Shown piece after piece: positions 44,209 to 61,643 of a stretch of DNA of 64,000 nucleotides (within the stretch, counting starts at the first letter, position 1; each line of letters opens with the position of its first letter). Source of the DNA: Minisyncoccota bacterium. Lineage in GTDB: Bacteria > Patescibacteriota > Minisyncoccia > Phycocordibacterales > CALRHW01. The translations under genes were made by a program, and so were the position numbers. Below the pieces are notes generated by a model. It did no database searches. It worked only from the letters and a program-made list of their open reading frames with translations, and had not been told where the DNA came from. The DNA lies in assembly GCA_046350795.1 (NCBI GenBank), contig JAXLZT010000001.1:309780-373779 (forward strand), read 5' to 3'.

Positions 44209-44335
44209 GTTTTTTATCATCCCAACTTTATCATCTGATTCGTCTTTATACAAAAGGAAAACCTCGGCGCGCACCTGTGTGCGCACCGAGGTCATTGACC
44301 TTCGTGATCATCGCGACCAGCCCGACTCGTGCCCC

Positions 44336-44875: not shown

Positions 44876-45023
44876 GTCGTGCTCCTTGAGTAGCGGTTTT
44901 TGGGTAGAGAGCGAATTCTTTATATAAGATTATTTATTAATCAAACTGTGTCAACCTCTTGAAAGAGTGTCTTTTGGTGAGCCTAATCGAGATGCGACCC
45001 AAGGATTCATTGCCCTGTAAGGC

Positions 45024-45218
45024 TCATTTTAGCTCTTCCTGACTTCTTAATCGACCCTTCTCGAGAGTAGCTTTCTTTGTATACAAATGAGGGTTTTGCT
45101 TCTTATCTTGATCTAGTAACCATTGGAATACTGCGACCACTCTGTCGCTTTCTTCTTTAGTCCAATTTTTAGGATTTCTTTTATCTTCTTGGTTCATAGA
45201 AAGTGACAAAAGTGACAC
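45024..45218 (-). CDS. small hypothetical protein (64 aa)
   Basis: This is an ORF only; no motif was recognised. Confidence 0.3.
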   Translation of the reverse strand: MSLLSLSMNQEDKRNPKNWTKEESDRVVAVFQWLLDQDKKQNPHLYTKKATLEKGRLRSQEELK

Positions 45219-45252
45219 AGAATCAAGTATAAAAGTTACACCTCAATGTAAC

Positions 45253-46161
45253 TTAATTATCTATTTGGATTATCTTTGACCCGTTGTCTGGATCCTCAGT
45301 TCTTTGTTGTAGAGTAAGCTTTCTGTAGTGAGAACAAGAGAATTTTAAGAAGTCATCTATTTCATCAAGATCAATATTTCCTTTCATGAGATCAGAAGGA
45401 TGAATCGAGATAATTAGATTTTCACATATGTTCAGATTCTTTGATGATTCGATGTAGCTTGTGATTATTTCTTTAATAGCACCTCTACGAGTCATATATG
45501 AGTCTCTTCCGTGTTGGGTATTTATTAGCGGGATAGTTAAATTTACATTCCTACCAGAATCCAAGGCAACATATTGCCAGAGCCCATTTAATGCCTGTAT
45601 AAAGTCATCAATTTCTGACCGAACACGATTGTTGTCCTTTTTAACAGAATTCACTACTAGGTAAAACTTTTTACCGTTCTGCTCCACTTCAATAGTTTTA
45701 CCTATCTCATGTTTTTGACCAATCGTAACTTTTGCGGAAATATCAGTATTTAAGTGATCAACTTTGTTTGCATAAAACTTCTGGATCACCTGATTTTGAA
45801 TACTGTTAGCCTTAAGAGCATTACCGCCAAGAGACATATCAAATTCGTCATTCACAGGAACCACCAAGGCACCACTATTATTGAAAGCATCGCCAACCTT
45901 AACTTCAATATAACTGTCTTTATTTCGCAAATTGTATTTAAAAGACGTTCGGGGTCTATTTTTTACAAGCGAAAGAATGCAGACAAGAATAAAGACTCCA
46001 CTGAATAGATAAACATTTTTGAAAATACTGTCTGTACTTTCATTCGTGCTGTAGCTAAACATCTCGACAAACAACCAAAATATACCCACCCAAGATACAA
46101 TATCAATAAAAATATTCTTCAGGTTTCTCCACCATCTTTTTATTCTGAGTGAAATTTTCAT
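45253..46161 (-). CDS. ThsA-like effector candidate: two N-terminal TM helices + cytoplasmic Macro-like domain
   Basis: The TM helices are 'IVSWVGIFWLFVEMF' and 'VYLFSGVFILVCILSLV'. The cytoplasmic segment 'IEVKVGDAFNNSGALVVPVNDEFDMSLGGNALKANSI' resembles the Macro-domain N-terminal motif (GDIt...DAIVNAANs.LlgGGGV..AI). Its start overlaps the TIR gene stop by 4 nt (ATGA), indicating an operon. Confidence 0.5.
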   Translation of the reverse strand: MKISLRIKRWWRNLKNIFIDIVSWVGIFWLFVEMFSYSTNESTDSIFKNVYLFSGVFILVCILSLVKNRPRTSFKYNLRNKDSYIEVKVGDAFNNSGALVVPVNDEFDMSLGGNALKANSIQNQVIQKFYANKVDHLNTDISAKVTIGQKHEIGKTIEVEQNGKKFYLVVNSVKKDNNRVRSEIDDFIQALNGLWQYVALDSGRNVNLTIPLINTQHGRDSYMTRRGAIKEIITSYIESSKNLNICENLIISIHPSDLMKGNIDLDEIDDFLKFSCSHYRKLTLQQRTEDPDNGSKIIQIDN

Positions 46162-46661
46162 AGCCCTAGAGCAGTATAAGCATCTTGGTTATACCGAAAA
46201 GGTCCTGTTTTACCGGCTCTTTTGTATTGGTTGTGCAATGACTCCCATTCACTCAATGCTTTACTAATAATTTTTTGATTAAAACTAACATGGACAGCAA
46301 GTTCGGTATCTAAGATTGACGGACATAGGTCATCATCGTGATATCTTTTACCATTCAGATTTACGGCAATAATAGGAAGTCCTTTTTTGATTGCTTGCTC
46401 AATTTCCCAACGAACAAACTTGTGATGAAATTTTGTTTTCTCGCCAATAAGGATGATGAAAACCTTTGTATTGTTCAGACGTTCCCTCAAACTTGCCTTA
46501 ATGGATTCTTCGGTTGACCACGGCATTATATTTGTAAGGTCGTGGGCATCGTAGAAGTTAAAGTTTGTGTTATCGTTTTGTTTCCATGCTTGCATTAAGC
46601 GGTAGTAACGAATATCGTTATCCGCATCAAAGGCAACATAAGTTTTGTTTGTGTAAGCCAT
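46158..46661 (-). CDS. TIR-like domain protein (ThsB-like, DUF1863/TIR_2-type)
   Basis: 'KTYVAFDADNDIRYYRLMQAW...TKVFIILIGEKTKFHHKFVRWEIEQAIKKGLPIIAVNLN' aligns by eye with Bacillus cereus ThsB ('RVFFSFHYQDVIDF...TSVTCVLIGSQTFNRRWVRYEIMKSIEKGNKIIGIHIN'). Confidence 0.75.
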   Translation of the reverse strand: MAYTNKTYVAFDADNDIRYYRLMQAWKQNDNTNFNFYDAHDLTNIMPWSTEESIKASLRERLNNTKVFIILIGEKTKFHHKFVRWEIEQAIKKGLPIIAVNLNGKRYHDDDLCPSILDTELAVHVSFNQKIISKALSEWESLHNQYKRAGKTGPFRYNQDAYTALGL

Positions 46662-46666
46662 ACAGT

Positions 46667-46897
46667 TTAGCCCCTTGGTGGGAATGGGTCATTTCCATAG
46701 CTGTTACGCTCTTGGATCTTTCCGTCTTTACCATGAATAAAGTGTTCAACCTTTGTTTTTTCAGCAACTTTTTCAGCTCTATCGAGAGCATTATTTTTTG
46801 TATGATGTGAAGAAATAGGAGTTGATGATCCCTCTTTTTTGTTTTCCCACATACTACGATCTGAATTGTATACAGTGTGTATATTTTTGTTAGCCAT
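46667..46897 (-). CDS. DUF2188-family small protein
   Basis: The C-terminal 'FIHGKDGKIQERNSYGNDPFPP' matches the DUF2188 signature (iHgrDGkIrernsYGnDP.pp). Confidence 0.5.
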   Translation of the reverse strand: MANKNIHTVYNSDRSMWENKKEGSSTPISSHHTKNNALDRAEKVAEKTKVEHFIHGKDGKIQERNSYGNDPFPPRG

Positions 46898-46908
46898 ATA
46901 TTTATAAA

Positions 46909-47550
46909 TTAACTTTTAATAATTCCGACAACCTTTCCGCTTAACTGGAAATCATCACCCTCATGAATAAATATCGGGAGATATTTATCAGTTGATTCCG
47001 CCTCAAGAACGATACGATTGTTCGCTTTGTCATTTTTGTATCGTTTGATAGTTGCCATTCCGTCTATGACAGCAACAACGATGTCTCCGTTCTTGTAGCT
47101 TTTGTATCCACTATCCACCAAAACAAAATCTCCGCTTTCAATAGTATTTTTGTCATCTACTTTTGCGAGATTCATACTATTACCGTCTGCTATAACAGAA
47201 TAGAGATCTTTCTTGTTGTATGGCAACATAGAAGATGAGACCTTGAGATACTGCTGAATATTTTGTTCGGCAAATATAGTCGCAGGACCACAGTTTGCAG
47301 ATCCAACAACAGGGAGTGAGAACACAGTATTAACGGTTGATTTAACAAGACCTCGCTTTACAGGTTTTATAACCCCTTGTTCAAGGTTCATTTGAATCAT
47401 TCCAGCCTTTTCAAGCTGTAATAAGTGATATTTCACTATCTGCGGTTTGTCAGGCACGCCAATTTTATCGGCTATTGTTCTAAGGCTGTATGATCCAATA
47501 TTAGGATCACTATCTATGAGAGCTAAAAGCTGTTTCTGTTTGTTGTGCAT
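46909..47550 (-). CDS. lexA: LexA-like repressor (winged-helix DNA-binding domain + S24 peptidase domain)
   Basis: The N-terminal wHTH is 'IADKIGVPDKPQIVKYHLLQLEKAGMIQ'. The S24 domain has catalytic Ser ('ADGNSMN') and Lys ('MATIKRY'). The predicted cleavage region 'VVGSANCGPA' has Cys-Gly where canonical LexA has Ala-Gly. Confidence 0.75.
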   Translation of the reverse strand: MHNKQKQLLALIDSDPNIGSYSLRTIADKIGVPDKPQIVKYHLLQLEKAGMIQMNLEQGVIKPVKRGLVKSTVNTVFSLPVVGSANCGPATIFAEQNIQQYLKVSSSMLPYNKKDLYSVIADGNSMNLAKVDDKNTIESGDFVLVDSGYKSYKNGDIVVAVIDGMATIKRYKNDKANNRIVLEAESTDKYLPIFIHEGDDFQLSGKVVGIIKS

Positions 47551-47628
47551 ACACCTATTATAGCATACTTTTCAACTTACAACAATATAAATTTGACACT
47601 TTTGACGGCAATCTGATATACTTTCCCT

Positions 47629-48048
47629 ATGGAGCAAAGTTTGCAATTAAATCGAGTAACACAGCTTCCAAAGAAAGGTGAAAAAGTCATCGTTCTTGAG
47701 CTTACCGATATTCAATTGCACTCTAATGCAAGACCTACCCAATCGGTTGGTGGTGCAATACGACGCTCCATAGAAAATAATAAGCCTGGTCGTATCTTTT
47801 CTTCTCTTGAGAAGAAACAAGAATCAAGTGCTGATCAAAATTCAATAGAGTTCACCATGCCGTTTGCAATGAACGATCCTGTACTAAAGCAAACAATCCA
47901 TGACTACCAACAACAAGGTTATCGTGTATTGATTCAAATGCCGAAATCAGGACTACCGATTCATCTTGGCAAGGATGCTGTCGAATTTATGAATAGTACT
48001 CGAGGAAAGCGAATCTTGAGAAAGATAAAGAAAGACAAAGGAAATTAA
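47629..48048 (+). CDS. hypothetical protein divergently transcribed from lexA-like gene
   Basis: This is a 139-aa ORF with a basic C-terminus. No family was recognised. Confidence 0.35.
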   Translation: MEQSLQLNRVTQLPKKGEKVIVLELTDIQLHSNARPTQSVGGAIRRSIENNKPGRIFSSLEKKQESSADQNSIEFTMPFAMNDPVLKQTIHDYQQQGYRVLIQMPKSGLPIHLGKDAVEFMNSTRGKRILRKIKKDKGN

Positions 48049-48207
48049 ATAAAAACGCGTCGTAAAAGCGAATAGTGCAACGCCACAAGCCATGCCTATT
48101 CCGCGCAAGAAGTAGTTTGAGGTTTTTCGGACCTCTACTTATTTCGTGTGTGGAATAGGCTTTTTCTATATCCATACATTTTATTAAAGATTAATTAATA
48201 AAATGCT

Positions 48208-49482
48208 ATGAAAAAACTTTCATGGACTACAGGAGTTCGAGAGGTCAAAGACCTACTCCCTTGGCAAGAAAACCCAAGAAAAATCTCAAAGCAAGCGTTA
48301 GATAAGTTGAAAGAAAAGATCACACAAAACGGCTTCCACAGCGTGATCGTGATTGATACCGACAATACGATTCTGTCAGGGAATCAAAGAAAGGTTGCAC
48401 TCATGGAGCTTGGTATCAATACCGTAGACGTAATGATCCCTAGTCGTAAGCTAAGTGATGCAGAACGACGAAGAATCGGTATTGAAAGCAATATCAATGA
48501 CGGTGAATGGAATTTCGAGAAATTGAAGTCATTTGATCTGGAACTACTCCAATTTGCAGGATTCGATGAAAAAGAATTAGTGAAGTTCTGGGACGAAGAA
48601 AAAGACACTAAAGACGACAAGTTCGATGTAGACAAGGAACTCAAGAAAATTAAGACGCCTCAAACAAAGTTGGGTGATCTTATTATCATGGGTAATCATA
48701 AGTTGCTTTGCTCAAGTTCTACTGATATCACTGCGGTTAAAAAACTATTCGGTGATGATAGAGCTACTGCTATCTACAGTGATCCACCTTTTAATATTGG
48801 GCTTTCATATGACAAAGGCGTTGGTAATAAATCAAACTATGGTGGTTCATTTGATGATAATCAATCACCAGAAGCATACAAGGAATTTATTCGCCAAGTT
48901 CTCACATCATCACTCGCCATATCCACCAAAGATACACATGTTGCATTTTGGTGTGATGAAGCGTGGGTGTGGGTTTTTCAAACCTTATATATGGAACTGG
49001 GCGTAAAGAATCGTAGGCTAAATATTTGGATCAAGAACAACTCCTCGCCTATACCCACCGTCGCATTTAACAAGTGTGCGGAGTATTGCGTGTACGGCAC
49101 AAAAGGATCTCCGTATCTGTCTGATTTAGTCAAAAACCTTAACGAGATTCAAAACAAGAATTGCACAACTGGAAATCAACTTCTTGAAGATATCTCGAAC
49201 ATTTGGGCAACTAAACGACTGCCGTCAAACCAAATGGAGCACCCTACAAGCAAAAATCCTGAACTACACCACAAGTTCATCATGCGATGCACAAAGCCAG
49301 GAGACATAATCTTCGATGCCTTTTCTGGTTCTGCTAGCACCATGATCTGTGCGGAGCAACTTGATCGCAAAGTCTACTCACTTGAAATTGAACCCGTGTT
49401 CTGTGACTTGGCAATTCGCAGATACGAAAAATTGACTGGTCGGAAAGCAAAAGTAATCAAGAACTTCTATGAAAAAGAATAA
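48208..49482 (+). CDS. ParB-like nuclease domain fused to N6-adenine/N4-cytosine DNA methyltransferase (phage-type orphan MTase)
   Basis: The N-terminal ParB/Srx-like domain is 'SKQALDKLKEKITQNGFHSVIVIDTDNTILSGNQRKVA'. Motif IV is 'AIYSDPPFNIGLSY' (DPPY/F). The SAM-binding motif I near the C-terminus ('DIIFDAFSGSASTMICAE') indicates beta-class N6_N4 MTase topology. Confidence 0.8.
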   Translation: MKKLSWTTGVREVKDLLPWQENPRKISKQALDKLKEKITQNGFHSVIVIDTDNTILSGNQRKVALMELGINTVDVMIPSRKLSDAERRRIGIESNINDGEWNFEKLKSFDLELLQFAGFDEKELVKFWDEEKDTKDDKFDVDKELKKIKTPQTKLGDLIIMGNHKLLCSSSTDITAVKKLFGDDRATAIYSDPPFNIGLSYDKGVGNKSNYGGSFDDNQSPEAYKEFIRQVLTSSLAISTKDTHVAFWCDEAWVWVFQTLYMELGVKNRRLNIWIKNNSSPIPTVAFNKCAEYCVYGTKGSPYLSDLVKNLNEIQNKNCTTGNQLLEDISNIWATKRLPSNQMEHPTSKNPELHHKFIMRCTKPGDIIFDAFSGSASTMICAEQLDRKVYSLEIEPVFCDLAIRRYEKLTGRKAKVIKNFYEKE

Positions 49483-49876
49483 ATTTCAGGATCAGTTTCT
49501 TGATGAACTACGAAAAGTTCCGATCGTTCAAGTTGCTTGTGAGAAAACAGGATTGTCTCGCAATAGTGTTTATCGTTGGAGAAAAGATGATAAAGCATTT
49601 CTCAAGAAGATGGACGATGCACTTGCCGATGGTGTCGCATTGGTAAACGACATGAGTGAAAGCCAACTACTCACACTCATTAAAGAGAAAAATTATCCTG
49701 CAATCAGTTTCTGGCTTAAACATCGCAATGATAATTATAAAAACAAGCTAGAGATCACCACTAAAGAAGATTCTGAACAACTTACTCCTTCACAAGCAAA
49801 AATCGTGAAGCAGGCACTTAAGCTCGCCAATATAACAAAATCGAAATCGATTAAAAACATTAACTCTAAAAAGTAA
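49469..49876 (+). CDS. phage terminase small subunit-like HTH protein
   Basis: It has the HTH 'VACEKTGLSRNSVYRWRKDD'. It lies immediately upstream of TerL and overlaps the preceding gene by 14 nt. Confidence 0.5.
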   Translation: MKKNKFQDQFLDELRKVPIVQVACEKTGLSRNSVYRWRKDDKAFLKKMDDALADGVALVNDMSESQLLTLIKEKNYPAISFWLKHRNDNYKNKLEITTKEDSEQLTPSQAKIVKQALKLANITKSKSIKNINSKK

Positions 49877-49877
49877 C

Positions 49878-51374
49878 ATGACTAAAATAATTCCAAATGC
49901 ATTGGTGAATACCATGCTAAAAGATCGTTCCGTGCGAACATCTATTACAAAAGACAGTTTCCTGTATTTCTTCCACTTCTACTACGCCCACTATGTAAAA
50001 TACGAAACCGCTGACTTTCAGAAAGAGATTATTCATAATCTCGAAAAAAGCTCGATTGAGAATATGTACGTTGTCGCATTTCGTGGATCAGGAAAATCTA
50101 CAATGGTGACGACCGCATATCCTATCTGGGCAATACTTGGAAAACAACAAAAGAAGTTTTGTATTATCTTTTGCCAAACTCGAGCACAAGCAAAACAGCA
50201 TATGATGAACATTCGTACTGAGCTTGAGGGTAACGATGTTCTTAAAAAGGATCTCGGACCATTCCAAGAAGAAAGCGATGAGTGGGGTTCGTTCTCATTA
50301 GTATTCAAAAAGCACGGAGCAAGAATCACCGTAGCTTCTGCCGAGCAAAGTATCCGTGGCATTCGTCACAACGAACACCGCCCAGACTTAATAATCTGTG
50401 ATGACGTTGAGGACGTGCAATCGACCAAAACCCGTGAGGGACGAGATAAAACATACCATTGGCTTCGAGGTGAAGTTATCCCTGCTGGCGATAGAAACAC
50501 CCGACTAATTATTGTTGGAAACTTACTCCATGAAGATTCACTCTTGATGCGTATTAAAGACGAAATCGCCAAAGGTAAGGCAAAAGGAATATTCAAGGAG
50601 TACCCGCTTATAGATAATCATGGTGTGTGCTTATGGTCAGGTAAATACAAAAGCGAGAAAGATCTTGAGGATGAAAAGTTGAAAGTTTCTAGTGATATAT
50701 CATGGCAACGAGAATATCTATTGCGTATTATTCCAGACGATGATCAGGTTATTTATCCTGAATGGATCAACTACTACGACGAATTGCCAGGCGAAAAGCA
50801 CCGGGGATTCAGAGGCACTTATGCGGGTGTCGATCTTGCGATTTCAGCTTCAGAAACTGCTGATGACACTGCTGTTGTATTTGCTCATATATATTCACGC
50901 CGTGAGAAAATGCGAATATACATATTGCCTAATCCTATCGCAAAGAAACTTAATTTTCCTGCACAGGTAGATCTCATGAAAGATATTCGTAGTACGATGC
51001 TCATAAAAAGTACGGACGAGTTATTTGTAGAAAGCGTGGCGTACCAAGAAGCACTTCCGCAAATGCTCGAACACCAAGGTGTTAAAGCGACAGCAATCAA
51101 ACCTAAAGGAGATAAAAGAACACGACTTGCTCTTACTTCGACCGCAATAAAATCATCAAAGATCTTATTTCCAAGACAAGGATGCGAGAGACTTATTGAG
51201 CAACTTGTAGGGTTTGGAGTAGAAAAGCATGACGACCTTGCCGATGCATTTTCGTTGCTTATAAACTCAACCATGGATAAGCATGCTAAAGATTCAACAT
51301 GGCTTATGTACTGGATGGGAGATGAAGAACCTTTGTACTATAGAGATTACGTTGATATGGACATAAAAAAGTAG
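49878..51374 (+). CDS. phage terminase large subunit (ATPase + RNaseH-like nuclease domains)
   Basis: Walker A is 'VAFRGSGKSTMV' and Walker B is 'LIICDDVED'. The nuclease-domain motif is 'YAGVDLAISASETADDTAVVFAHI'. Confidence 0.8.
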   Translation: MTKIIPNALVNTMLKDRSVRTSITKDSFLYFFHFYYAHYVKYETADFQKEIIHNLEKSSIENMYVVAFRGSGKSTMVTTAYPIWAILGKQQKKFCIIFCQTRAQAKQHMMNIRTELEGNDVLKKDLGPFQEESDEWGSFSLVFKKHGARITVASAEQSIRGIRHNEHRPDLIICDDVEDVQSTKTREGRDKTYHWLRGEVIPAGDRNTRLIIVGNLLHEDSLLMRIKDEIAKGKAKGIFKEYPLIDNHGVCLWSGKYKSEKDLEDEKLKVSSDISWQREYLLRIIPDDDQVIYPEWINYYDELPGEKHRGFRGTYAGVDLAISASETADDTAVVFAHIYSRREKMRIYILPNPIAKKLNFPAQVDLMKDIRSTMLIKSTDELFVESVAYQEALPQMLEHQGVKATAIKPKGDKRTRLALTSTAIKSSKILFPRQGCERLIEQLVGFGVEKHDDLADAFSLLINSTMDKHAKDSTWLMYWMGDEEPLYYRDYVDMDIKK

Positions 51375-51446
51375 TCGCGAGTATGCGACGTATTTCTAGT
51401 TCTGCATAGTCTATGCACCACCGACTGGTCTGTCATTAATTAATAT

Positions 51447-52730
51447 ATGACAGAAGTCGAACAAAACCAGATGAAATATTGCTTGTACGCTCGTAAATCA
51501 ACCGAAGCAGAAGAAAAACAAGCACTTTCTATTGATTCTCAAATCAAAGAAATGAAACAGATTGCCGAGCGTGAAAATCTAACCATAGTTGAGATCCGTA
51601 AAGAATCACATAGCGCAAAGGAATCTGGACAAAGACCTGTATTTGAAGAGATTGTAAAAGATATCGATACGGGAATATTCAATGGAATCATTACATGGGC
51701 ACCAGATAGACTTTCTCGTAATGCAGGTGATCTTGGAAAGCTTGTAGACAGAATGGATCAAAGGAAACTGATTCAGATCAAAACTTTTGGTCAGACTTTT
51801 TCTAATTCACCAAGTGACAAGTTCCTGCTGATGATTCTTTGTAGTCAGGCAAAGCTTGAAAACGACAACAAAAGTATCAATGTAAAGCGTGGCATGAGAG
51901 CTAGGTGCGAAATGGGATTATGGCCAGTACAACCACCAACGGGATATAGAAAGCCTAATCAACGATTGGCTAAGTGTGAGGTAGAAATTGATCCAGAACG
52001 AGCCGATACTATACGACAAATATTTGAGAAGATTAGTTATGAAAAATGGAGTGTATCAAAAGTACATGCATGGTTACGATATGATCTTGATTTCAAAACT
52101 CACAGAGGTTTTCATTTAAGTCTTGGAAATGTATTCAAGATTATAAACAATACTTTCTACTACGGTCGCTTTGAGTTTCCTCAAGGATCAGGTATTTGGT
52201 ATGAGGGAAAACATAAACCTATTATCACAAAAGAGTTGTTTGATGAGACAAGAAATTCTATCAAATCGCAGACGATAAAATCACAAGGCAAGGAATTTGC
52301 GTTTACAAGAATCATGAAATGCGGAGCTTGTGGATCTGGTATTACTGCCGATGAGAAGTTCAAGAAGTTACTGAATGGCGGAGTGAACCGACATGTATAT
52401 TATCGATGCACAAAAGCAAAAGACAGGAATTGTAAAAATCCTGCCCTGAATGAAACTGAACTCATTGAATCACTACTCGATATGGTTGATACCTTGAACA
52501 TAAATAAGGTAAAACTTACTGCAAAGCTTGATGTTGAAATTCAAAAGTTTAAGAAACTACAAGCAATGTTTTTGGGCAAAAAGAAGACTGAGAAAATAGA
52601 GCCTATTGATCTTAAGGACTATACAAAATTTGTACTAAAAGAAGGATCTCCGTTAGAGCAGAGATCTATCTTGGAATGTATCAGTAGTGAATTGGTCTTG
52701 AAGAATAAGAAAATAGTTGCTAGCAACTAA
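51447..52730 (+). CDS. large serine recombinase (resolvase/invertase catalytic domain + recombinase + zinc-ribbon domains)
   Basis: 'YCLYARKSTEAEEKQALSIDSQ' is the Ser-recombinase active-site motif (YxRxST...SxxxQ). It is followed by 'ITWAPDRLSRN', the recombinase domain, and the zinc ribbon 'CGACGSG...YYRC'. Confidence 0.85.
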   Translation: MTEVEQNQMKYCLYARKSTEAEEKQALSIDSQIKEMKQIAERENLTIVEIRKESHSAKESGQRPVFEEIVKDIDTGIFNGIITWAPDRLSRNAGDLGKLVDRMDQRKLIQIKTFGQTFSNSPSDKFLLMILCSQAKLENDNKSINVKRGMRARCEMGLWPVQPPTGYRKPNQRLAKCEVEIDPERADTIRQIFEKISYEKWSVSKVHAWLRYDLDFKTHRGFHLSLGNVFKIINNTFYYGRFEFPQGSGIWYEGKHKPIITKELFDETRNSIKSQTIKSQGKEFAFTRIMKCGACGSGITADEKFKKLLNGGVNRHVYYRCTKAKDRNCKNPALNETELIESLLDMVDTLNINKVKLTAKLDVEIQKFKKLQAMFLGKKKTEKIEPIDLKDYTKFVLKEGSPLEQRSILECISSELVLKNKKIVASN

Positions 52731-52734
52731 GAAA

Positions 52735-53916
52735 TCAAGACTTTTTTCCAGCATGTTCAACAATGAATTTTGCTCGTTCATAAAGCTCATCATAAGTTAA
52801 AATCTCAATGTTTTTGGAGTCACGTCGAAACAATTCAAATGTTTTTGCTTTTATTTGGTTTTCTTTATCAGTACCATCAAATTGTTTTGTTGATCCGATA
52901 ACTAAGATACTCTTGGGATCAAATGCTTTTTGCTTAATTAATTCTCCTTTATCATTATAGTTTCCATTTACATTTGTTTCTGCTGTAATTTGCCAACTAG
53001 CTTTTTGCTCTAGTATTTGAGACAAGCCTGAAACTAGATCATCCGAGAGTGTCCACGAATTTGAACGATTCTTATCTTTACCAAATAAAGGGGTATCGTG
53101 CTTTTTAAGTTCAACTAGTACTGTAAATTTACTACACCCTAAAAGGAAGTCGTTAATAACAGATTCTTTTCCTGATACGTCTGTACCTGATACGTGTGCT
53201 TCTTTTTGTAAAATTCCAAGGAATCGATAATCTAGTCCATATCCAAAAATCCAATCATTTATATTAAAGAAATGTTGCCAGACAGATTCATGTCTCGTAT
53301 CTGTTATATTATTCTCGGAAATGTAGGTTGCAAAATAGCCCTCTTGATTTAAAAGATTATTAAAAATTTCTAGTTGCTTCTTACGGTATCCTATATTTAC
53401 AATATCAGTTGAAGTTATAATACCACTAGCTAAAACCTCCTCGATAATCTCTTGACCGTCCTTTCTCAATAATAGTGTTTTAATTTTTTTCTTTGTTTCA
53501 TCGTCTATATTGGGGAGATTATCATCAGCAAGCGTAATTCTTCTTTCATTCACGTCGCCAAGGTTTAATTCTGAAAGGAGTTGTAGATATCCAATGATCT
53601 GCTTGAAAAATGGAAAAGAGAAGACGATTTGTTCATCTTGTTCAACATAACCTTTGTTTTTGTAAAACTTAAATCGCTTAAAAGAAACATTGGTAATCTC
53701 ATTATTTTGTTTAATAAATGTAAAAGTAGTTTTAATTTTATTCCTTATGACAGGATAAGGATGTTCTACTTCAATAGCATCTGGTACACCATTTTCATCT
53801 CTTGAGACAATGGTAAAATATTTCCCAGCTTCATTTTTGAATTTATGGGTATATAGTGTGTCGGTTTTGTAATTATCGACTATTTTTTCTTCTGAATTTT
53901 CAATTTCTAGTCCCAT
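52735..53916 (-). CDS. putative PD-(D/E)xK nuclease-domain protein, DUF4263/Shedu (SduA)-like
   Basis: The 393-aa length fits the family. The candidate nuclease motif is '...GTDVSG...TVLVELKKHD' (D...ExK on a hydrophobic beta-strand), with a C-terminal '...EILTYDELYERAKFIV'. It lies immediately downstream of hsdR in the same orientation. Confidence 0.4.
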   Translation of the reverse strand: MGLEIENSEEKIVDNYKTDTLYTHKFKNEAGKYFTIVSRDENGVPDAIEVEHPYPVIRNKIKTTFTFIKQNNEITNVSFKRFKFYKNKGYVEQDEQIVFSFPFFKQIIGYLQLLSELNLGDVNERRITLADDNLPNIDDETKKKIKTLLLRKDGQEIIEEVLASGIITSTDIVNIGYRKKQLEIFNNLLNQEGYFATYISENNITDTRHESVWQHFFNINDWIFGYGLDYRFLGILQKEAHVSGTDVSGKESVINDFLLGCSKFTVLVELKKHDTPLFGKDKNRSNSWTLSDDLVSGLSQILEQKASWQITAETNVNGNYNDKGELIKQKAFDPKSILVIGSTKQFDGTDKENQIKAKTFELFRRDSKNIEILTYDELYERAKFIVEHAGKKS

Positions 53917-53921
53917 ATAAT

Positions 53922-56900
53922 TTATTCCTTAAACTTACCACCTGAAATATCAAAGAATCTTTCAAAGAAGTTTGTGAATTTAGTTAATACGCTCTCACGT
54001 TTTTTGGTTCGATCACCACTTGGAGAAAAGCGAGATACTGGGGGTAGTACTTTTGTTATTGCGGTTCCTGTTGTTGCGACACTTCCGTCACGGAAAGCAT
54101 TTTGTATGAAAGTATATGTTGCGTCATGATCGAGATTCTCACTAGCAATAATCTTTTCTAATTCCTCAATTTTCTTCTCTTCAACAAACTTTTTCCAGTC
54201 ATCATCAACAGCAGAGTGTACATCTAGAGAAGTAATGAATTGATTGATTAGATCTTTCTTATTTCTTAACTCAACACTAGAATCAATAGCTTTATTAATA
54301 TCAATTAGTAGTTCTCGATTATTTATATGATCCTCGTGATATCTCCTGATTAGTCCCAACACATAATCAATATTGATTTCAATTTGTTTTATAAGCTCCA
54401 TTTCAAAGACTACATCTTCATTGATGTTTTCTTTATCTTCTTCGATTGTCTTTCGGAACTCATTGTACAAATCAATGTACATACTGTGATAATCTTGAAC
54501 ATCTCGATCAGTCAAAATTTCATTACCTGCAAACTCGTCAAAAGTTGCAAGAATGTTACGAACACGCAATACCGCACCATACAGCTTAATAAATTCCTTT
54601 TGTTGTTGTTCACTAATGATTCGTTCACCTACAGGGAACTTCTCCAAAAGTTCATCTACTAAACTCCTATATCCTCTGATTTCTTTGTCGCCATCTTTGT
54701 AACCGTTGTAATAATCCGCATATGCTTTCAAAAGCACAACACCACAAGCCTCTTTGTCACCAAAGAGAGCAATTGATTCATTTGTGGCTTTTTCAAGATT
54801 TCGGAAACAAACAATATTTCCAAAAGTCTTTACGCTATTCAAAATACGGTTAGTTCTTGAATATGCTTGAAGCAAACCATGTAGACGGAGATTTTTATCT
54901 ACCCAAAGAGTATTGAGGGTAGTCGCATCAAATCCAGTTAAGAACATGTTCACTACGATAAGAATATCGATTTCTCTGTCTTTTACACGCTGACTAACAT
55001 CCTTATAATAGTTTTGAAATTTATCAGAAGAAGTGTCATAAGACGTGCCAAACATCGCATTGTAGTCCTTAATTGCATTATCTAGAAAATCCCTCGAACT
55101 AACATCAAGACCGCTCGTATCTTCAGAATTTTCATCGATCATTCCGTCAGCATCCTCGTCATTAACCCCAAAACTGAAAATGGTTGCGATTTTAAGTTGC
55201 TTATCACTTGGCACATCAGCTAATTGCTTCTTAAACTCCATGTAATACTTTTTAGCAACATCAATTGATGAAACTGCAAAGATAGAGTTAAATCCTGCCA
55301 ACCGTCGATCCTTTAATTTGTAGAAACTATTACGCTTTGTCTTTTGATCAAAATGTTCACGTATGTAGCCAACAATGTTTTCCAAGCGTTCAGGAGAAGC
55401 AAGAACAGCCTCACGATCAATGTCGCTCACTTTCTTGTCCTCAATATTTTCAGCTTCTTTTACAGTTGAAACGTAATCAACCTTAAATGGTAGTACGTTT
55501 TTATCTGCAATCGCATCAACGATTGTATAAGTGTGTAATTTTTCACCAAAAGCTTGCTCAGTAGTTTTTAGATCGGGTCGTCCTCCAGAAGAAGCATTCA
55601 TCGCAAAAATCGGTGTACCAGTAAAGCCAAAAAGATGATAGTTCTTAAATGTCTTTGTAATCGCAGCATGCATATCACCAAACTGTGATCGGTGACATTC
55701 ATCGAATATCAAAACTACATGATCATCAAAAATTTCGTGATTACCATTCCGACCAATAAAACGATCTAGTTTTTGAATGGTCGTGATAATAATCCGTGCA
55801 TTTGGGTTTTCAAGTTGTTTCTTCAGTAATGCTGTTGAGGTGTTACTATTCGCCGCACCTTTTTCAAACTTGTCATATTCACGCATTGTTTGATAATCCA
55901 AATCTTTACGATCCACAACAAAAACAACCTTATCTACATATGACAACTTACTTGCAAGCTGTGCTGTTTTAAAGCTAGTAAGTGTTTTTCCTGACCCTGT
56001 TGTATGCCAGATGTAACCACCAGCCTCTACAGTGCCGAGTTTTTTGTAGTTAGTACTAACCTCAATCCTGCTTAGAATTCTTTCTGTTGCAACAATCTGA
56101 TATGGTCGCATTACCAAGAGTTGTTTATCAGTAGTGAAAACGCAGTACCGAGTGAGAATGTTTAAAAGCGTGTGTTTTGCAAAAAAAGTTTTTGTAAAAT
56201 CCATCAAATCAGTAATGGGTCGGTTTGTAGCATCTGCCCACCAACTTGTGAATTCGAAACTGTTACTTGTACGTTTTCCTTTCTTTACAGTTCCTTCATT
56301 TGATTCTCTTATGTGTTGTCTTCGTACAGTGTTACCGTAATACTTTGTATGTGTACCGTTTGAAATTATAAATAGTTGTACATATTCAAAAAGACCAGAA
56401 GAAGCCCAGAAGCTTTCTCTTTGATAACGATTGATCTGATTAAAAGCTTCTTGAATGGCAACACCACGGCGTTTCAACTCAATATGAACAAGAGGTAGAC
56501 CATTAACAAGAACAGTTATGTCATATCGGTTTGATCTTTTTCCGTCTTCAGTAGCGTACTGGTTAATAACTTGAAGACTGTTGTTATGAATATTTTTCTT
56601 GTCTATCAAATCAATATTCTTGAAAGTGCCGTCATCTCGCTTTAGTACTTTTGTATTGTCTTCTTGAATAGTTGTCGTTTTATCTTCAATACTTTGATTT
56701 GGATTTGCTAGTTCATTTACAAAAAATCTTTCCCATTCAAGGTCTGTAAATTCAAAATTATTTAGTTTTTCTAGCTGTTTACGTAAGTTAACAACCAAAG
56801 TTGCTTCAGATGTAATCGGGAGATATTCGTATGCCTGTGTTTCTAATTGCTTTACAAGTGCACGTTCAAGTTCCGCCTCACTTTGATAGTGAGCCACTCT

Positions 56901-56981
56901 CTTACCGTCAGAAACATATTCTGCAACTACAGTACTTTGCGAATTTTCCGCAACTAAATTGTATTTATTGTTAATTGACAT
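53922..56981 (-). CDS. hsdR: type I restriction enzyme R subunit (HsdR)
   Basis: It is 1019 aa. The N-terminal HsdR_N nuclease region is followed by SF2 helicase motifs: motif I is 'WHTTGSGKTLTSFK', the DEAH-like box is 'IFDECHRSQ', and motif VI is 'QAYSRTNR'. Confidence 0.9.
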   Translation of the reverse strand: MSINNKYNLVAENSQSTVVAEYVSDGKRVAHYQSEAELERALVKQLETQAYEYLPITSEATLVVNLRKQLEKLNNFEFTDLEWERFFVNELANPNQSIEDKTTTIQEDNTKVLKRDDGTFKNIDLIDKKNIHNNSLQVINQYATEDGKRSNRYDITVLVNGLPLVHIELKRRGVAIQEAFNQINRYQRESFWASSGLFEYVQLFIISNGTHTKYYGNTVRRQHIRESNEGTVKKGKRTSNSFEFTSWWADATNRPITDLMDFTKTFFAKHTLLNILTRYCVFTTDKQLLVMRPYQIVATERILSRIEVSTNYKKLGTVEAGGYIWHTTGSGKTLTSFKTAQLASKLSYVDKVVFVVDRKDLDYQTMREYDKFEKGAANSNTSTALLKKQLENPNARIIITTIQKLDRFIGRNGNHEIFDDHVVLIFDECHRSQFGDMHAAITKTFKNYHLFGFTGTPIFAMNASSGGRPDLKTTEQAFGEKLHTYTIVDAIADKNVLPFKVDYVSTVKEAENIEDKKVSDIDREAVLASPERLENIVGYIREHFDQKTKRNSFYKLKDRRLAGFNSIFAVSSIDVAKKYYMEFKKQLADVPSDKQLKIATIFSFGVNDEDADGMIDENSEDTSGLDVSSRDFLDNAIKDYNAMFGTSYDTSSDKFQNYYKDVSQRVKDREIDILIVVNMFLTGFDATTLNTLWVDKNLRLHGLLQAYSRTNRILNSVKTFGNIVCFRNLEKATNESIALFGDKEACGVVLLKAYADYYNGYKDGDKEIRGYRSLVDELLEKFPVGERIISEQQQKEFIKLYGAVLRVRNILATFDEFAGNEILTDRDVQDYHSMYIDLYNEFRKTIEEDKENINEDVVFEMELIKQIEINIDYVLGLIRRYHEDHINNRELLIDINKAIDSSVELRNKKDLINQFITSLDVHSAVDDDWKKFVEEKKIEELEKIIASENLDHDATYTFIQNAFRDGSVATTGTAITKVLPPVSRFSPSGDRTKKRESVLTKFTNFFERFFDISGGKFKE

Positions 56982-58191
56982 ATTCGTTGAAGGTTAAAAG
57001 TTTTCCTCGGTAATATTCATATTGTGATCGACGTGCCTTAAGTTCAGCAGGTAATCCGATTGAAATATTGTTTACCAAATCATCAAATTTATCGAGGATG
57101 CTCACTATTCTTTTTTGTTCTTCAAGCGGAGGTACGGGTATTTGTATTTTTAGAATATCGTCTTTGCGAAGATTTGTTTGATCAGCACCGTTATCGTATC
57201 TAAGCAGTTGTCTGTTTCTACTTAATATGTAAAAAAGATATTTTGAATATATTTCATCTTTATTTTTAACACTCAAAGCACAGATTCGTTGATTTAAAGT
57301 GTATTTGTCGTTCTCATCAACATAAAAACATTTTGCTAGTGCTTTTCCGTTTGGGAGATCGCTCATAACCATCAAAATATCATTTTCAAATACAGGAGAA
57401 ATCTGACTGACAGAATATTTTTTAACTCTTCCATCTGTCGAAACAAATTTAGAATTAACAACAATATATTTGCCGTTTTCATCTATTAGTTTTTCGTGTC
57501 CTTTTCCATTCATAAAGTTAATAACCTGATCAAGTGGTAACCATTGTGTACTTCCCGCATTATCAAACGTCAATAATTGCGTACGGTAATGCTCATACTG
57601 CTTTTTTCTAGCTTCCAGCTCTGCTTCCAGCTCTGCTTCCAGCTCGGTAAAACTATTAAGTAGTTTGACAATCTCTTCTTGTATAGCAAGTGGTGGAATT
57701 GGTATTTTATACTCATCCCTAATTACTGATGGATGGGCTTTTTTGGTATAGTCAAAAACCTTTGTCATCCATGCGTCTGACAACACAAAATATAAATATT
57801 TTGTGTTCAATGCCTTTGTGTTGTTAACTTTTAACCACCCAGAAACATTTGTTACTGAATACTTATGGGTTGGTCGATAAAAAAAGCGACCACCTCCATC
57901 TATGGACCATGAAATACGCTCATCATCAAACATATATTTGCCATATCTACCAAATTCACCCGAACCAGTAGCGGAAGATGAGTATACGGGATAATCACCT
58001 GGTATTTTCGCTAAGTCATTTTTTGAGATAACTTCTCCTCGACCCAGCTTAATCATGTCTAAATCTTCAAGTTCTCCGAGTTTCTTAAACTCTACTCCGT
58101 TAGGAGATAGTTCAAGGATGAGTTTTTCAATTTTACTTTGAGTTTTAGTCATGTTTCCTTGTTTTTTCGATTTCTCTAACAATTTCATCAA
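56971..58191 (-). CDS. hsdS: type I restriction-modification specificity subunit (HsdS) with two target-recognition domains
   Basis: There are two TRDs, each followed by a conserved helical region. The central conserved region contains the tandem tetrapeptide repeat (ELEA)x3. It overlaps hsdM by 47 nt and hsdR by 11 nt. Confidence 0.85.
   Translation of the reverse strand: MMKLLEKSKKQGNMTKTQSKIEKLILELSPNGVEFKKLGELEDLDMIKLGRGEVISKNDLAKIPGDYPVYSSSATGSGEFGRYGKYMFDDERISWSIDGGGRFFYRPTHKYSVTNVSGWLKVNNTKALNTKYLYFVLSDAWMTKVFDYTKKAHPSVIRDEYKIPIPPLAIQEEIVKLLNSFTELEAELEAELEARKKQYEHYRTQLLTFDNAGSTQWLPLDQVINFMNGKGHEKLIDENGKYIVVNSKFVSTDGRVKKYSVSQISPVFENDILMVMSDLPNGKALAKCFYVDENDKYTLNQRICALSVKNKDEIYSKYLFYILSRNRQLLRYDNGADQTNLRKDDILKIQIPVPPLEEQKRIVSILDKFDDLVNNISIGLPAELKARRSQYEYYRGKLLTFNEYVN
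57611..57646. repeat. perfect 12-bp tandem repeat x3 (gcttccagctct) inside hsdS central conserved region, encoding (ELEA)3
   Basis: The plus-strand sequence is gcttccagctct gcttccagctct gcttccagctcg. Confidence 0.9.
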
Positions 58192-59740
58192 TCGACTTGC
58201 GGAGTTCGTTTTGTCGAATAACTATTTGATCAATCTCTGAGTTAAGTTCAGTAATATTTATAACTTCACGAGTATCTTCTGCAACAACATAACTTGAGAC
58301 ATCAAGCTTGTATGCATTATCAGAAATGTCCTTATTACTTACTAATTTAGCAAAGTGCTCTATATCCTTTCTCTCAATGAAAGCAGCCAGTATCTTTTTT
58401 CTATTTTCATCACTAAGTTTATTTTTATTTCCGCCACGAACAAATTCTGTTGAAGCATCTATGAAAAGTGTTCTGTTATCTTTTTTGCTCTTCTTAAGAA
58501 CAACAATACAAGTTGCAATACCTGTACCGAAGAAGAGGTCTTGAGGTAATTGGATAACAGTGTCCACATAGTTATTATCAATCAAATATTTTCTGATTTT
58601 CTGCTCAGCACCACTACGATAGAGAACCCCTGGGAATTCAACAATCGCCGCAGTTCCACTTGTAGAAAGCCATGAGAGCATGTGCATTGTAAATGCAAGA
58701 TCTGCTTTACTTTTAGGTGCTAGAACTCCAGCAGGAGAGAATCTTGGATCATTAATAAGTATAGGATTAGCATCACCCTCCCAATTAATTGAATATGGTG
58801 GATTTGAAACTATTGCATCAAATGGCTCATCGTCCCAGTGTTTAGGGTCGGTTAATGTATCTCCGTGAGCGATATCGAAATTATTGTAATTAACATCGTG
58901 CAAAAACATGTTAATACGACACAGGTTGTAAGTGGTTAGATTTATTTCTTGCCCATAAAAACCTTGTCTTACATTTTCCTTACCAAGTACCTTGGCAAAT
59001 TTAAGAAGTAGAGATCCTGATCCACAACAAGGATCGTATACTTTATTAACTTCCTTTTTACCGACTGTTGTAATCTCAGCGAGAAGCTCACTAACTTCTT
59101 GAGGTGTGTAATATTCTCCACCAGATTTTCCTGCGTTTGAGGCATACATTGCCATGAGGTACTCATACGCATCACCAAAAGCATCGATTGTATTATCAGC
59201 ATAATCACCTAGACGAAGATCACCAATTGCTTCTAGAAGTTTTGTGATTCTTTGATTTCTTTTTTCTACGGTACCACCCAACTTGTTTGAATTAACATCC
59301 AAATCATCAAATAGACCCTTGAGATCTTCTTCGCTACTTGAACCTTTCGCAGAACTTTCAATATTACTAAATACGTTAGAAAGGGTTTCGTTTAGATTTG
59401 CATTGTTTCGTGCATTTTTACGAACATTAACAAAAAGCTCGCTAGGTAAGATGTAAAATCCTTTTTCTTTTACAGTATCAGCACGACCGAATTCAGCTTC
59501 TTTATCAGAGAGTGAAGTATAGTCAAAATCTTTATTTCCTGAGCGTCGTTCATCAGCATTAATATAATTTGTTAGGTTTTCGCTGATGAATCTATAAAAA
59601 AGTATTCCAAGAACATATTGTTTAAAATCCCATCCATCCACACTACCTCGAAGATCATTGGCAATTTGCCAAATTGCACGATGGAGTTCAGCTCGTTCTT
59701 GTTCTTTTGTTGTATTTAAATTTGTTTTATCTTTACTCAT
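58145..59740 (-). CDS. hsdM: type I restriction-modification DNA methyltransferase subunit (HsdM, N6-adenine)
   Basis: The N-terminal HsdM_N domain is 'LHRAIWQIANDLRGSVDGWDFKQYVLGILFYRFISE'. Motif I is 'VYDPCCGSGSLLL' and motif IV is 'IVSNPPYSINW'. Confidence 0.9.
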   Translation of the reverse strand: MSKDKTNLNTTKEQERAELHRAIWQIANDLRGSVDGWDFKQYVLGILFYRFISENLTNYINADERRSGNKDFDYTSLSDKEAEFGRADTVKEKGFYILPSELFVNVRKNARNNANLNETLSNVFSNIESSAKGSSSEEDLKGLFDDLDVNSNKLGGTVEKRNQRITKLLEAIGDLRLGDYADNTIDAFGDAYEYLMAMYASNAGKSGGEYYTPQEVSELLAEITTVGKKEVNKVYDPCCGSGSLLLKFAKVLGKENVRQGFYGQEINLTTYNLCRINMFLHDVNYNNFDIAHGDTLTDPKHWDDEPFDAIVSNPPYSINWEGDANPILINDPRFSPAGVLAPKSKADLAFTMHMLSWLSTSGTAAIVEFPGVLYRSGAEQKIRKYLIDNNYVDTVIQLPQDLFFGTGIATCIVVLKKSKKDNRTLFIDASTEFVRGGNKNKLSDENRKKILAAFIERKDIEHFAKLVSNKDISDNAYKLDVSSYVVAEDTREVINITELNSEIDQIVIRQNELRKSIDEIVREIEKTRKHD

Positions 59741-59744
59741 AAAA

Positions 59745-59951
59745 TTATTTTAATAATTCGTTAGTCGACACTCCCAATGTCTGGGCTAGATTAGTAATAG
59801 TTGAAAGAGTAGGGTTTGTCTTTCCATTCTCAATATTACTTACAAAAGATTTGTCTACACCGAGTGTTTTGGCAAGTTCGGTTTGCGTAATATTCTTCTT
59901 AGTTCTGATTTTCTTGAGATTCTCTCCTAATTTTTTGGCACCATCTTTCAT
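59745..59951 (-). CDS. XRE-family helix-turn-helix transcriptional regulator (controller-like, upstream of the R-M operon)
   Basis: The HTH_3 motif is 'ITQTELAKTLGVDKSFVSNIENGKTNPTLSTITNLAQTLGVSTNEL'. Length is 68 aa. Confidence 0.7.
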   Translation of the reverse strand: MKDGAKKLGENLKKIRTKKNITQTELAKTLGVDKSFVSNIENGKTNPTLSTITNLAQTLGVSTNELLK

Positions 59952-59986
59952 AAAAAGATTATAACATAAATCGTTGTATTAAACTA

Positions 59987-60015
59987 CAACAAAAGCAAGT
60001 CATAAATGACTTGCT
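59987..60015. terminator. hairpin terminator (GCAAGTCATaaATGACTTGC + T-rich tail), potentially bidirectional
   Basis: The sequence is aaaaGCAAGTCATaaATGACTTGCttttgtttg, located between the XRE gene and tRNA-Glu. Confidence 0.55.
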
Positions 60016-60068
60016 TTTGTTTGCTAGTTTCGACCCTTGTCGAGTGCTCGAACTAGCTCTCTCTATTG

Positions 60069-60140
60069 TGACCCTACCGGGAATCGAACCCGGCTTTGCG
60101 CCTTGAAAGGGCACTGTCCTAACCGATAGACGATAGGGCC
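60069..60140 (-). tRNA. tRNA-Glu (anticodon TTC)
   Basis: The reverse complement folds with acceptor GGCCCTA/TAGGGTC, anticodon stem GTGCC/GGCGC with loop CTTTCAA, and T-arm CCGGG-TTCGATT-CCCGG. No encoded CCA. Confidence 0.8.
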
Positions 60141-60216
60141 ATATAACTGCTGAAATATATCATTTTTTGCAGAAAAAGCAAAAAGTGATAGGATGTTTTC
60201 AAGTATTAAAAGTTAT

Positions 60217-60289
60217 GGGCGGTTAGCTCAGTTGGTAGAGCGCAACATTGACGTTGTTGATGCCAGAGGTTCGAGTCCTCTACCGCCCA
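60217..60289 (+). tRNA. tRNA-Val (anticodon GAC)
   Basis: The cloverleaf has acceptor GGGCGGT/ACCGCCC, D-arm TAGCTCAGTTGGTAGAGC, anticodon stem CAACA/TGTTG with loop TTGACGT, and T-arm AGAGG-TTCGAGT-CCTCT. Confidence 0.8.
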
Positions 60290-60413
60290 CAATTTCGTCT
60301 CAAAAAACCCTTTGATATCGAACGTGAGGACTGAAGATATTTCTGGGGTTGGTTTGTGTATATTATAGAAGCTTAGTTTTAATTGACTTTTTCGGGTTTT
60401 TGTGTAGATTTAA

Positions 60414-61643
60414 GTGTATATGAATAAAATACCAAAGAATCTGTTATTACCGGCGATTATTTTAACAGTTATTTTGCCTATAAATTTAATCGGAGTCCGT
60501 CTTGATTATAGTCGAGCTACTTTTGTGGGTGAGGTAAAAGATAGTGCAGAAGAGTCTAATTTATCAGTTTCAACAGAAAAAGTTGAGGACGTGGATTTGG
60601 TTGATTTGAAAACAGAGCCAAAAATTGAGGCAAACTTGTCTAATGTTGAAGAATCTTTAAATCAAGATGTTGTCGAACCTGAGTCTGTAGACAATGTCAG
60701 TGTGGAAAACGTTAATGATAGCCAAGCTACTGACAATGGTCCTAGTGTCCATGAGGTTGCTGTTGAAACAAACTCCACAGTTGATAGATCTAGGGTTTGT
60801 TTGGGTGATCTAAATAATGATGGTCAAGTAAACGGTGATGATGTGCGAATAGTATTGGATTCTTGGTCTCATGATGTAGATAATTCTGGGTCTTCAATAG
60901 CAGATTTAAACAATGACGGTATCGTAGACGGATCTGATCTCGGAACTGTGCTCGGTCATTGGGGAGATTGTTCCGCTTCTTTAAACAATTCAGATGACAC
61001 ACCTGGTCCAAATTTTATACAAAATTTTACAGGTTTAGAGTCAGCTCTAAATGGTGTACAAAAAATACACATATCAACTAATTCAGATTTGTCTCCAACA
61101 GGCATTGGTAATACAGCTGATGAGCCAATAGAAGATGAAGGTGGTGATAATGGTAATAACGGTAATGAGGGCAATAATGGCAATAATGGCAATAATGGCA
61201 ATAACGGCGGTGGTGGTAATGACGGAGGCGGTAGTGGAAGCGGTAGTTCATCAAGTAATAAAAGAGGAGAGGTGCTTGGTGCAAGTGATATAAACAACGA
61301 GCTTGTTGTCGTTGCGTTTTCTCAATGCAATGAAGCTTATTTGAAAGACTATATTAAATATGGTGCAAATAATAATCCAGAAGAAGTAAAAAAATTACAA
61401 ACTTTCTTAAATAATCGTGGCGCTGGATTGCCGGTGACTGGTTTTTATGGAGAAAAGACCTTAGAAGCAGTAAAAGATTTTCAGCGTAAGTTTAATAAAC
61501 TTATATTAAAGCCTTGGTTTGATGCTGGTCTACTACCAGATGATACACAACCTACTGGATACGTATATGAAACGACTCGTTTTTGGATAAACGCAATGAC
61601 TTGTGGTGGTGTAAAAAATCTAACTCTACCAAAAATAAGATAG
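60414..61643 (+). CDS. secreted protein with two dockerin-type Ca-binding repeats, Asn/Gly low-complexity linker and C-terminal peptidoglycan-binding (PG_binding_1-like) domain
   Basis: It has a signal peptide. The dockerin-like segments are 'GDLNNDGQVNGDDVRIVLDSWS' and 'ADLNNDGIVDGSDLGTVLGHWG', with the (NG)n linker 'GNNGNEGNNGNNGNNGNNGGGGNDGGG'. The C-terminus 'VKKLQTFLNNRGAGLPVTGFYGEKTLEAVKDFQRKF' is PG-binding-like. Confidence 0.6.
   Translation: MYMNKIPKNLLLPAIILTVILPINLIGVRLDYSRATFVGEVKDSAEESNLSVSTEKVEDVDLVDLKTEPKIEANLSNVEESLNQDVVEPESVDNVSVENVNDSQATDNGPSVHEVAVETNSTVDRSRVCLGDLNNDGQVNGDDVRIVLDSWSHDVDNSGSSIADLNNDGIVDGSDLGTVLGHWGDCSASLNNSDDTPGPNFIQNFTGLESALNGVQKIHISTNSDLSPTGIGNTADEPIEDEGGDNGNNGNEGNNGNNGNNGNNGGGGNDGGGSGSGSSSSNKRGEVLGASDINNELVVVAFSQCNEAYLKDYIKYGANNNPEEVKKLQTFLNNRGAGLPVTGFYGEKTLEAVKDFQRKFNKLILKPWFDAGLLPDDTQPTGYVYETTRFWINAMTCGGVKNLTLPKIR
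61151..61207. repeat. 9-bp tandem repeat (ggYaataaY)x6 encoding (GNN)n
   Basis: The sequence is ggtaataac ggtaatgag ggcaataat ggcaataat ggcaataat ggcaataac. Confidence 0.8.

Follow-up and report, generated by a model that had tools for sequence, protein, structure and literature searches.

The hsd operon and its surroundings

The window, by which we mean the whole 64,000-nt stretch of DNA that was analyzed, carries on its minus strand an intact restriction-modification operon in the order HTH-hsdM-hsdS-hsdR. At the head of the operon lies a gene for a 68-aa HTH_3 (Cro/C1-type) protein (59745..59951), a candidate for the controller protein of the operon; public contigs from the same strain likewise retain it alongside hsdM. 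It is followed by hsdM (58145..59740; 531 aa, with HsdM_N and N6_Mtase domains), hsdS (56971..58188; 405 aa), and hsdR (53922..56981; 1019 aa, with HSDR_N, SWI2_SNF2/ResIII, T1R_D3-like, and EcoR124_C domains), all three likewise on the minus strand and overlapping at their ends, hsdS sharing 44 nt with hsdM and 11 nt with hsdR. The hsdS gene was read from the ATG at 58188, with alternative starts at TTG 58191 and ATG 58152, and its product comprises two target-recognition domains (Pfam Methylase_S), a helix in the center, and a conserved pair of helices at the C terminus; the Pfam assignment agrees with the initial annotation of the gene as a type I restriction-modification specificity subunit, HsdS.

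The hsdM-hsdS-hsdR order is that of type IC, the EcoR124 family. In comparisons with all solved structures, the best relative of HsdS was EcoR124 HsdS (7bst_A, 114 bits); EcoR124 HsdM (7bst_D) was the best solved relative of HsdM, at 617 bits over residues 11-526 of 531, versus 325 bits for the next best and only 56 bits for EcoKI HsdM; and EcoR124I HsdR was the top PDB match of HsdR (875 bits, E about 1e-261), which also contains the Pfam EcoR124_C domain at 2.6e-65. Because all three subunits match EcoR124 best, the system is assigned on sequence grounds to type IC, and every feature of the EcoR124 family that can be tested in sequence was found. EcoR124 is located on an IncFIV plasmid, whereas the system in the window belongs to the chromosome of an uncultured bacterium, where its island adjoins tRNA genes.

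A tBLASTn search with HsdS over the whole window found only the gene itself and no second hsdS, and no long inverted repeats were present at 50000-61000; an invertible hsdS shufflon is thus ruled out by the single hsdS in the window together with the absence of suitable inverted repeats. The recombinase gene near the operon (51447-52730) encodes an enzyme of the large serine type (Resolvase, Recombinase, and Zn_ribbon_recom domains).

The operon is part of a defence and mobile-element island (44300-60300) between tsaD (43024-44295) and the genes for tRNA-Glu and tRNA-Val (60068-60290). Besides the recombinase, the island encodes a ThsA-Macro protein (45253-46161), an S24 peptidase/repressor-like protein (46909-47550), an N6_N4 methylase (48208-49482), a DEAD and Terminase_6C protein (49878-51374), and Shedu SduA (52735-53916), the last directly downstream of hsdR; public contigs show the recombinase, Shedu, and hsdR in this arrangement as well. 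The interval that separates the minus-strand tRNA-Glu gene from the HTH gene contains a perfect hairpin (59988-60021; 16-nt arms, 2-nt loop), followed on the minus strand by a T-rich run and a TATAAT box ahead of the HTH start codon. This region is probably the tRNA terminator and the operon promoter, and the hairpin may also be an operator for the HTH protein. Elsewhere in the window, a bacterial class A RNase P RNA at 31019-31374 scored 105 bits against an Rfam gathering threshold of 100, which suggests a divergent molecule, consistent with an unusual, possibly candidate-phyla-radiation, host.

A tetrapeptide repeat in the central helix of HsdS

Within hsdS, Tandem Repeats Finder (TRF) and the raw sequence concordantly placed a 12-nt tandem array at 57611..57645 (2.9 copies, 100% matches, no indels, score 70), with the repeat unit reported as GCTTCCAGCTCT (period 12), which corresponds to GAGCTGGAAGCA on the coding, minus strand. 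The minus-strand codons run ACC (GAG CTG GAA GCA)x2 GAG CTG GAA GCT AGA and encode T-(ELEA)3-R, the (ELEA)3 forming HsdS residues 182-193 (codons 57610-57645); on the plus strand, no open reading frame crosses the tract. The derivation of (ELEA)3 from a 12-bp tandem repeat at 57611-57646, as the initial annotation had it, was borne out by both TRF and the raw sequence, but its description of three perfect copies needs a small correction, as base 57646 is g, not t, such that the third copy matches at 11 of 12 positions in that register and perfect 12-nt periodicity extends over 35 of the 36 nt claimed. The flanks specific to the window allele are ..AATAGTTTTACC and TAGAAAAAAGCAG.., or 5'-CTTAATAGTTTTACC and TAGAAAAAAGCAGTATGAGC-3' on the coding strand. 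If the codons for this peptide had been chosen independently, at the frequencies found in the window, the units would show such identity with a probability of only ~0.0014; CTG, the leucine codon used three times in the array, is the rarest leucine codon of the window (5%).

The repeat lies in the central conserved region (57574..57690, minus strand), which the AF2 model and the alignment with EcoR124 HsdS depict as one continuous alpha-helix of 39 residues (167-205) with the sequence LAIQEEIVKLLNSFT-ELEAELEAELEA-RKKQYEHYRTQL. In the AF2 model (mean pLDDT 87.7, from 43 homologues), this helix stands between the two recognition domains, in line with the earlier placement of the repeat in the central spacer helix. 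The C-terminal conserved region (56998..57126, minus strand; helices 355-373 and 379-397, ..DKFDDLVNNISIGLPAELKARRSQYEYYRGKL) is a paralogue of the central region that lacks tandem units and is presumed to be the partner of the central helix. The window HsdS aligned to 7bst_A over residues 131-388, and around the repeat the alignment was gap-free, both for FT-ELEAELEAELEA-RKKQY and for the longer stretch LAIQEEIVKLLNSFT-ELEAELEAELEA-RKKQYEHYRTQLLTF. Both proteins have 12 residues between FT and RKKQY, and (ELEA)3 is in register with the TAEL repeat of EcoR124, the tetrapeptide repeat expected of type IC; the two are thus positionally homologous, as the initial annotation had proposed in naming TAEL as the counterpart. 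The solved EcoR124 chain fills the interval with two TAEL units and a degenerate LNMR, whereas the window has three DNA-identical units of the same total length. Judged by this alignment, the three ELEA units equal the length of the two-TAEL EcoR124 chain, which has the EcoR124I count and is the N6 form, and not that of the three-TAEL N7 form.

Several known systems bear close comparison with this arrangement. The spacers of EcoR124I and EcoR124II, N6 and N7, are one TAEL unit apart (PMC7383803), and the window resembles this pair in the subunit concerned, the repeat position, the period of four residues or 12 nt, and the hsdM-hsdS-hsdR order, but differs in its unit (ELEA/LEAE rather than TAEL). 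TAEL, LEAT, SEAL, and TSEL repeats have been described as characteristic of type IC (PMC10030836). The closest published match is the hsdS of Xylella fastidiosa XfaII, in which the core conserved region contains a 12-base repeat encoding LEAE whose copy number, documented as 0.75 to 3.75 and at most 11.75, differs among strains and also within one allele (bioRxiv 10.1101/2022.09.01.506293); the unit is identical to that of the window, the core-region location is the same, and LEAELEAELEA (2.75 copies) is a common state. The XfaII gene is also frameshifted by two poly-C tracts, whereas no comparable homopolymer was noticed in the window hsdS in an unsystematic reading of the raw sequence, and the documented variation in XfaII copy number contrasts with the three units in both full-length assemblies of the window hsdS. 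NgoAV, whose type IC central-region tetrapeptide repeat is like that of the window but has a different unit (LEAT), recognizes GAC N6 TGC or GAC N7 TGC with 1 or 2 LEAT repeats, respectively, by SMRT sequencing (PMC6789123), N6 going with "1" LEAT as its authors count; a phase-variable poly-G tract that truncates the NgoAV HsdS has no equivalent in the window gene. In Mycoplasma pneumoniae, 12-bp repeats encoding ELSA/TELS are variable from strain to strain and also across passages of a single strain (PMC8836594). These tandem repeats occupy the dimerisation/conserved region of HsdS, as in the window; however, the arrays are much longer (differences of up to about 16 units), the type I family is different, and there are ten hsdS paralogues versus a single hsdS in the window. 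The feature is therefore textbook for type IC, and its LEAE unit is already published for Xylella. Taken together, the tract is very probably the tandem tetra-amino-acid repeat that is canonical for the central conserved region in HsdS of type IC (the EcoR124 family).

The window allele in public assemblies

Logan contigs 99.9-100% identical to the window were recovered from at least eight runs belonging to several projects. Two of these contigs, L002 (SRR26348419) and L089 (SRR29476927), read through the array with exactly three units, such that the 3-unit array is present in two independent public assemblies of the same strain with 99.96-100% identical DNA. Other contigs break within the array: L001 (SRR26348420) ends at window position 57616, with one flank base and 30 nt of array, and five contigs (L003/L091, L090, L092, L093, and one more; their runs include SRR26348422, SRR30183946, SRR14234072, and SRR26348423) start at 57640, with 30 nt of array and then the first flank base. 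Logan assemblies use k=31, and in a de Bruijn graph with this k the in-branch and out-branch nodes fall exactly at 57616 and 57640. Since a single 3-unit genome contains no repeated 30-mer, breaks at those nodes imply that the runs in question also contain a second sequence that has 30 nt or more of the array in common but is flanked by different bases.

The identity of that sequence bears on whether the array is a true contingency locus, i.e., one that switches often, with 3-unit alleles and alleles of four or more units co-existing and giving mixed restriction specificities and methylomes. The breaks fall precisely where an allele of four or more units would put them, in contigs that are otherwise 99.9-100% identical, and the equivalent repeats are published as varying by strain or passage in Xylella and M. 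pneumoniae. A co-resident, related hsdS with the same unit and different flanks, however, would give identical breaks, and such genes are common: in L009, L095, L096, and L097, (GAGCTGGAAGCA)3 is preceded by ACA or AAA and finishes with GCA, and three or four copies of GAGCTGGAAGCA are present in L094, L100, and L138. The six contig breaks are thus ambiguous, since they fit a longer allele (at least four units) and a related, co-resident hsdS equally well.

Searches for alleles of other lengths also weigh against frequent switching. The initial annotation had proposed to look for polymorphism of two, three, or four copies at this site, and no 2-, 4-, or 5-unit version of the window allele was found, either by exact look-up or in a flank-anchored scan of JGI contigs. 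Specifically, 1-, 2-, 4-, and 5-unit versions of the 405-aa HsdS were all absent by exact look-up from a collection of 15 billion proteins, from which the 3-unit version was likewise absent; a DNA pattern consisting of the allele-specific flanks and a 23-53 nt gap gave 0 matches in JGI metagenome contigs; and a protein-guided scan of the same contigs returned only relatives of ≤80% identity. A look-up of the expected truncated product found no contig that starts where a mixture of 2- and 3-unit alleles would break. Moreover, contigs from two runs read through the array with exactly three units, and three units make a short array. We therefore consider a frequently switching contingency locus possible but unlikely. 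It is similarly doubtful that 3-unit alleles co-exist with alleles of four or more units in natural populations and that the contig breaks record specificity switching in real time, although phase variation in the host of the window allele is plausible.

Unit number and homogenisation across the family

Homologues of the window HsdS were compared for the presence and number of units. A tandem tetrapeptide occurred in 98 of the 120 best HsdS homologues, nearly always at the central-region position, and xLEAELEAELEAR was one of the usual forms. Among GTDB species-representative genomes, 49 of the loci found through HsdM had a readable central region, and these contained two units (1 locus), three (29), four (17), or five (2), whereas 30 metagenome loci found through HsdS had three (20) or four (10). 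Across the resulting 79 related loci, unit number thus ranged from two to five with three the commonest, and the three ELEA units of the window represent the commonest length in the family, not an expanded state. The nearest relatives of HsdM were from Patescibacteria and Gracilibacteria MAGs (candidate-phyla-radiation), and HsdM was 73-87% identical across Patescibacteria, Bacteroidota, Actinomycetota, Pseudomonadota, Bacillota, Elusimicrobia, and other phyla (loci L006-L085); these identities indicate that one type IC lineage has spread very widely by horizontal transfer.

Close relatives that differ in unit number were also present. P0089, with two units, has flanks 100% identical to those of P0047 and others, with three, and P0024 (three units) and P0031 (four units) have flanks that are 97% and 91% identical. 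Recent unit changes are therefore visible in the family as near-identical alleles one unit apart. At the DNA level, units with the same peptide were identical in 71.5% of pairs within a locus (mean 0.34 differences) versus 5.4% of pairs between loci (2.23) in the 49-locus set, and the metagenome set behaved similarly, with 61% identical within loci versus 13% between. Synonymous codons were free to differ between loci (CTG/CTA/TTG/TTA/CTT for leucine; GAA/GAG; GCA/GCG/GCT/GCC), yet were nearly always alike within one. Chance or codon bias as the source of the DNA identity of the units is excluded by this contrast and by the probability of ~0.0014 given above.

Because units are alike in DNA within loci and unlike between them, recurrent homogenisation by slippage or unequal exchange is called for; on these codon comparisons, slippage or unequal exchange is shown to recur in the family, and selection on the protein alone would be inadequate. 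The proposal that copy number can expand and contract accordingly found its confirmation at the level of the family, with two to five units that are homogenised within loci. Two further proposals of the initial annotation went too far. Arrays of the family do slip, but three units are a modest substrate and not an "ideal" one; and although unit number differs between near-identical relatives, phase-variable specificity is no more than plausible for the window allele, both full-length observations of which have three units.

Some of the relatives have unusual architectures. L122, a metagenome locus, has two matches to the central-region motif, QSLEAELEAELEA and QSLEAELEVELEV, which may point to a pair of hsdS genes in tandem, or to two alleles, whose repeat units are diverging. 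P0039-P0049 and similar proteins, and L152 (3001-4827), are three-domain HsdS proteins of ~600 aa, each consisting of a complete HsdS plus a third recognition domain and helix, and are near-identical save for 1-4 TDRQ linker units (596, 600, 604, and 608 aa); P0047 is found on 91 contigs, NCBI records among them. In L152, an (ACAG)n tetranucleotide repeat codes for the linker, so a single-unit change would cause a frameshift and detach the third domain, making this linker a candidate on/off or specificity switch.

The family comparison also bears on whether the repeat is simply a fixed structural motif, maintained by protein-level selection alone for a helical LEAE pattern in HsdM/HsdS assembly or compatibility, with DNA identity of no mutational consequence. 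The peptide pattern is highly conserved across phyla, X. taiwanensis is invariant at 2.75 copies in 31 strains (bioRxiv 10.1101/2022.09.01.506293), and the repeat sequence is said, in a citation of Adamczyk-Poplawska 2003, to define HsdS compatibility groups within type IC. Nevertheless, a fixed motif leaves unexplained the synonymous-codon identity within versus between loci (72% vs 5%), the spread from two to five units, and the near-identical alleles exactly one unit apart; the within-locus codon identity and the unit changes have already largely refuted it, and we regard it as very improbable. Least credible of all is an assembly artefact in which a longer or shorter array was collapsed or expanded to three units, for although short-read assemblies break at the array in several runs, a 35-nt array is spanned by any single read, and L002 and L089, from different projects, contain identical arrays of three units, bounded by unique flanks at either end, which argues that the array of the window is real.

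We thus favor a canonical type IC repeat as the explanation of the tract. The array sits midway along the single long alpha-helix between the two target-recognition domains, where EcoR124 has TAEL, and by analogy with EcoR124I/II and NgoAV the helix would act as a ruler in which a 4-residue unit (about 0.6 nm), when gained or lost, lengthens or shortens the non-specific spacer by ~1 bp. In the family, replication slippage or unequal exchange expands and contracts the array, which would shift specificity over evolutionary time, with the window lineage at the commonest 3-unit state and rapid switching within populations a possibility. As the window helix is as long as that of the EcoR124 N6 form, the default prediction is an N6-type spacer for the window enzyme and, by the same analogy, an N7-type spacer for its 4-unit relatives. 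Homology is the basis of both the ruler function and the N6 prediction; the recognition domains also set spacer length, and repeat counts map differently between systems, as in NgoAV. The 1-bp shift per unit gained or lost, which had been put forward from EcoR124I versus EcoR124II, stands for that cited N6/N7 pair and is extended to the window by analogy, with the specification that three ELEA units would correspond to N6 and not to N7.

The window locus itself has little wider importance, being an ordinary new example of a known feature, but it would allow a bipartite target with an EcoR124I-length (N6-type) spacer to be predicted from sequence, and the gain or loss of one unit would change its specificity. 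Should reads reveal mixed array lengths, the locus would provide a rare case from the environment of an uncultured lineage that switches specificity. For the family, ~80 loci from many phyla with two to five units give a measure of how general slippage is in the evolution of the type IC ruler, and the comparison supports unit count as a predictor of spacer length.
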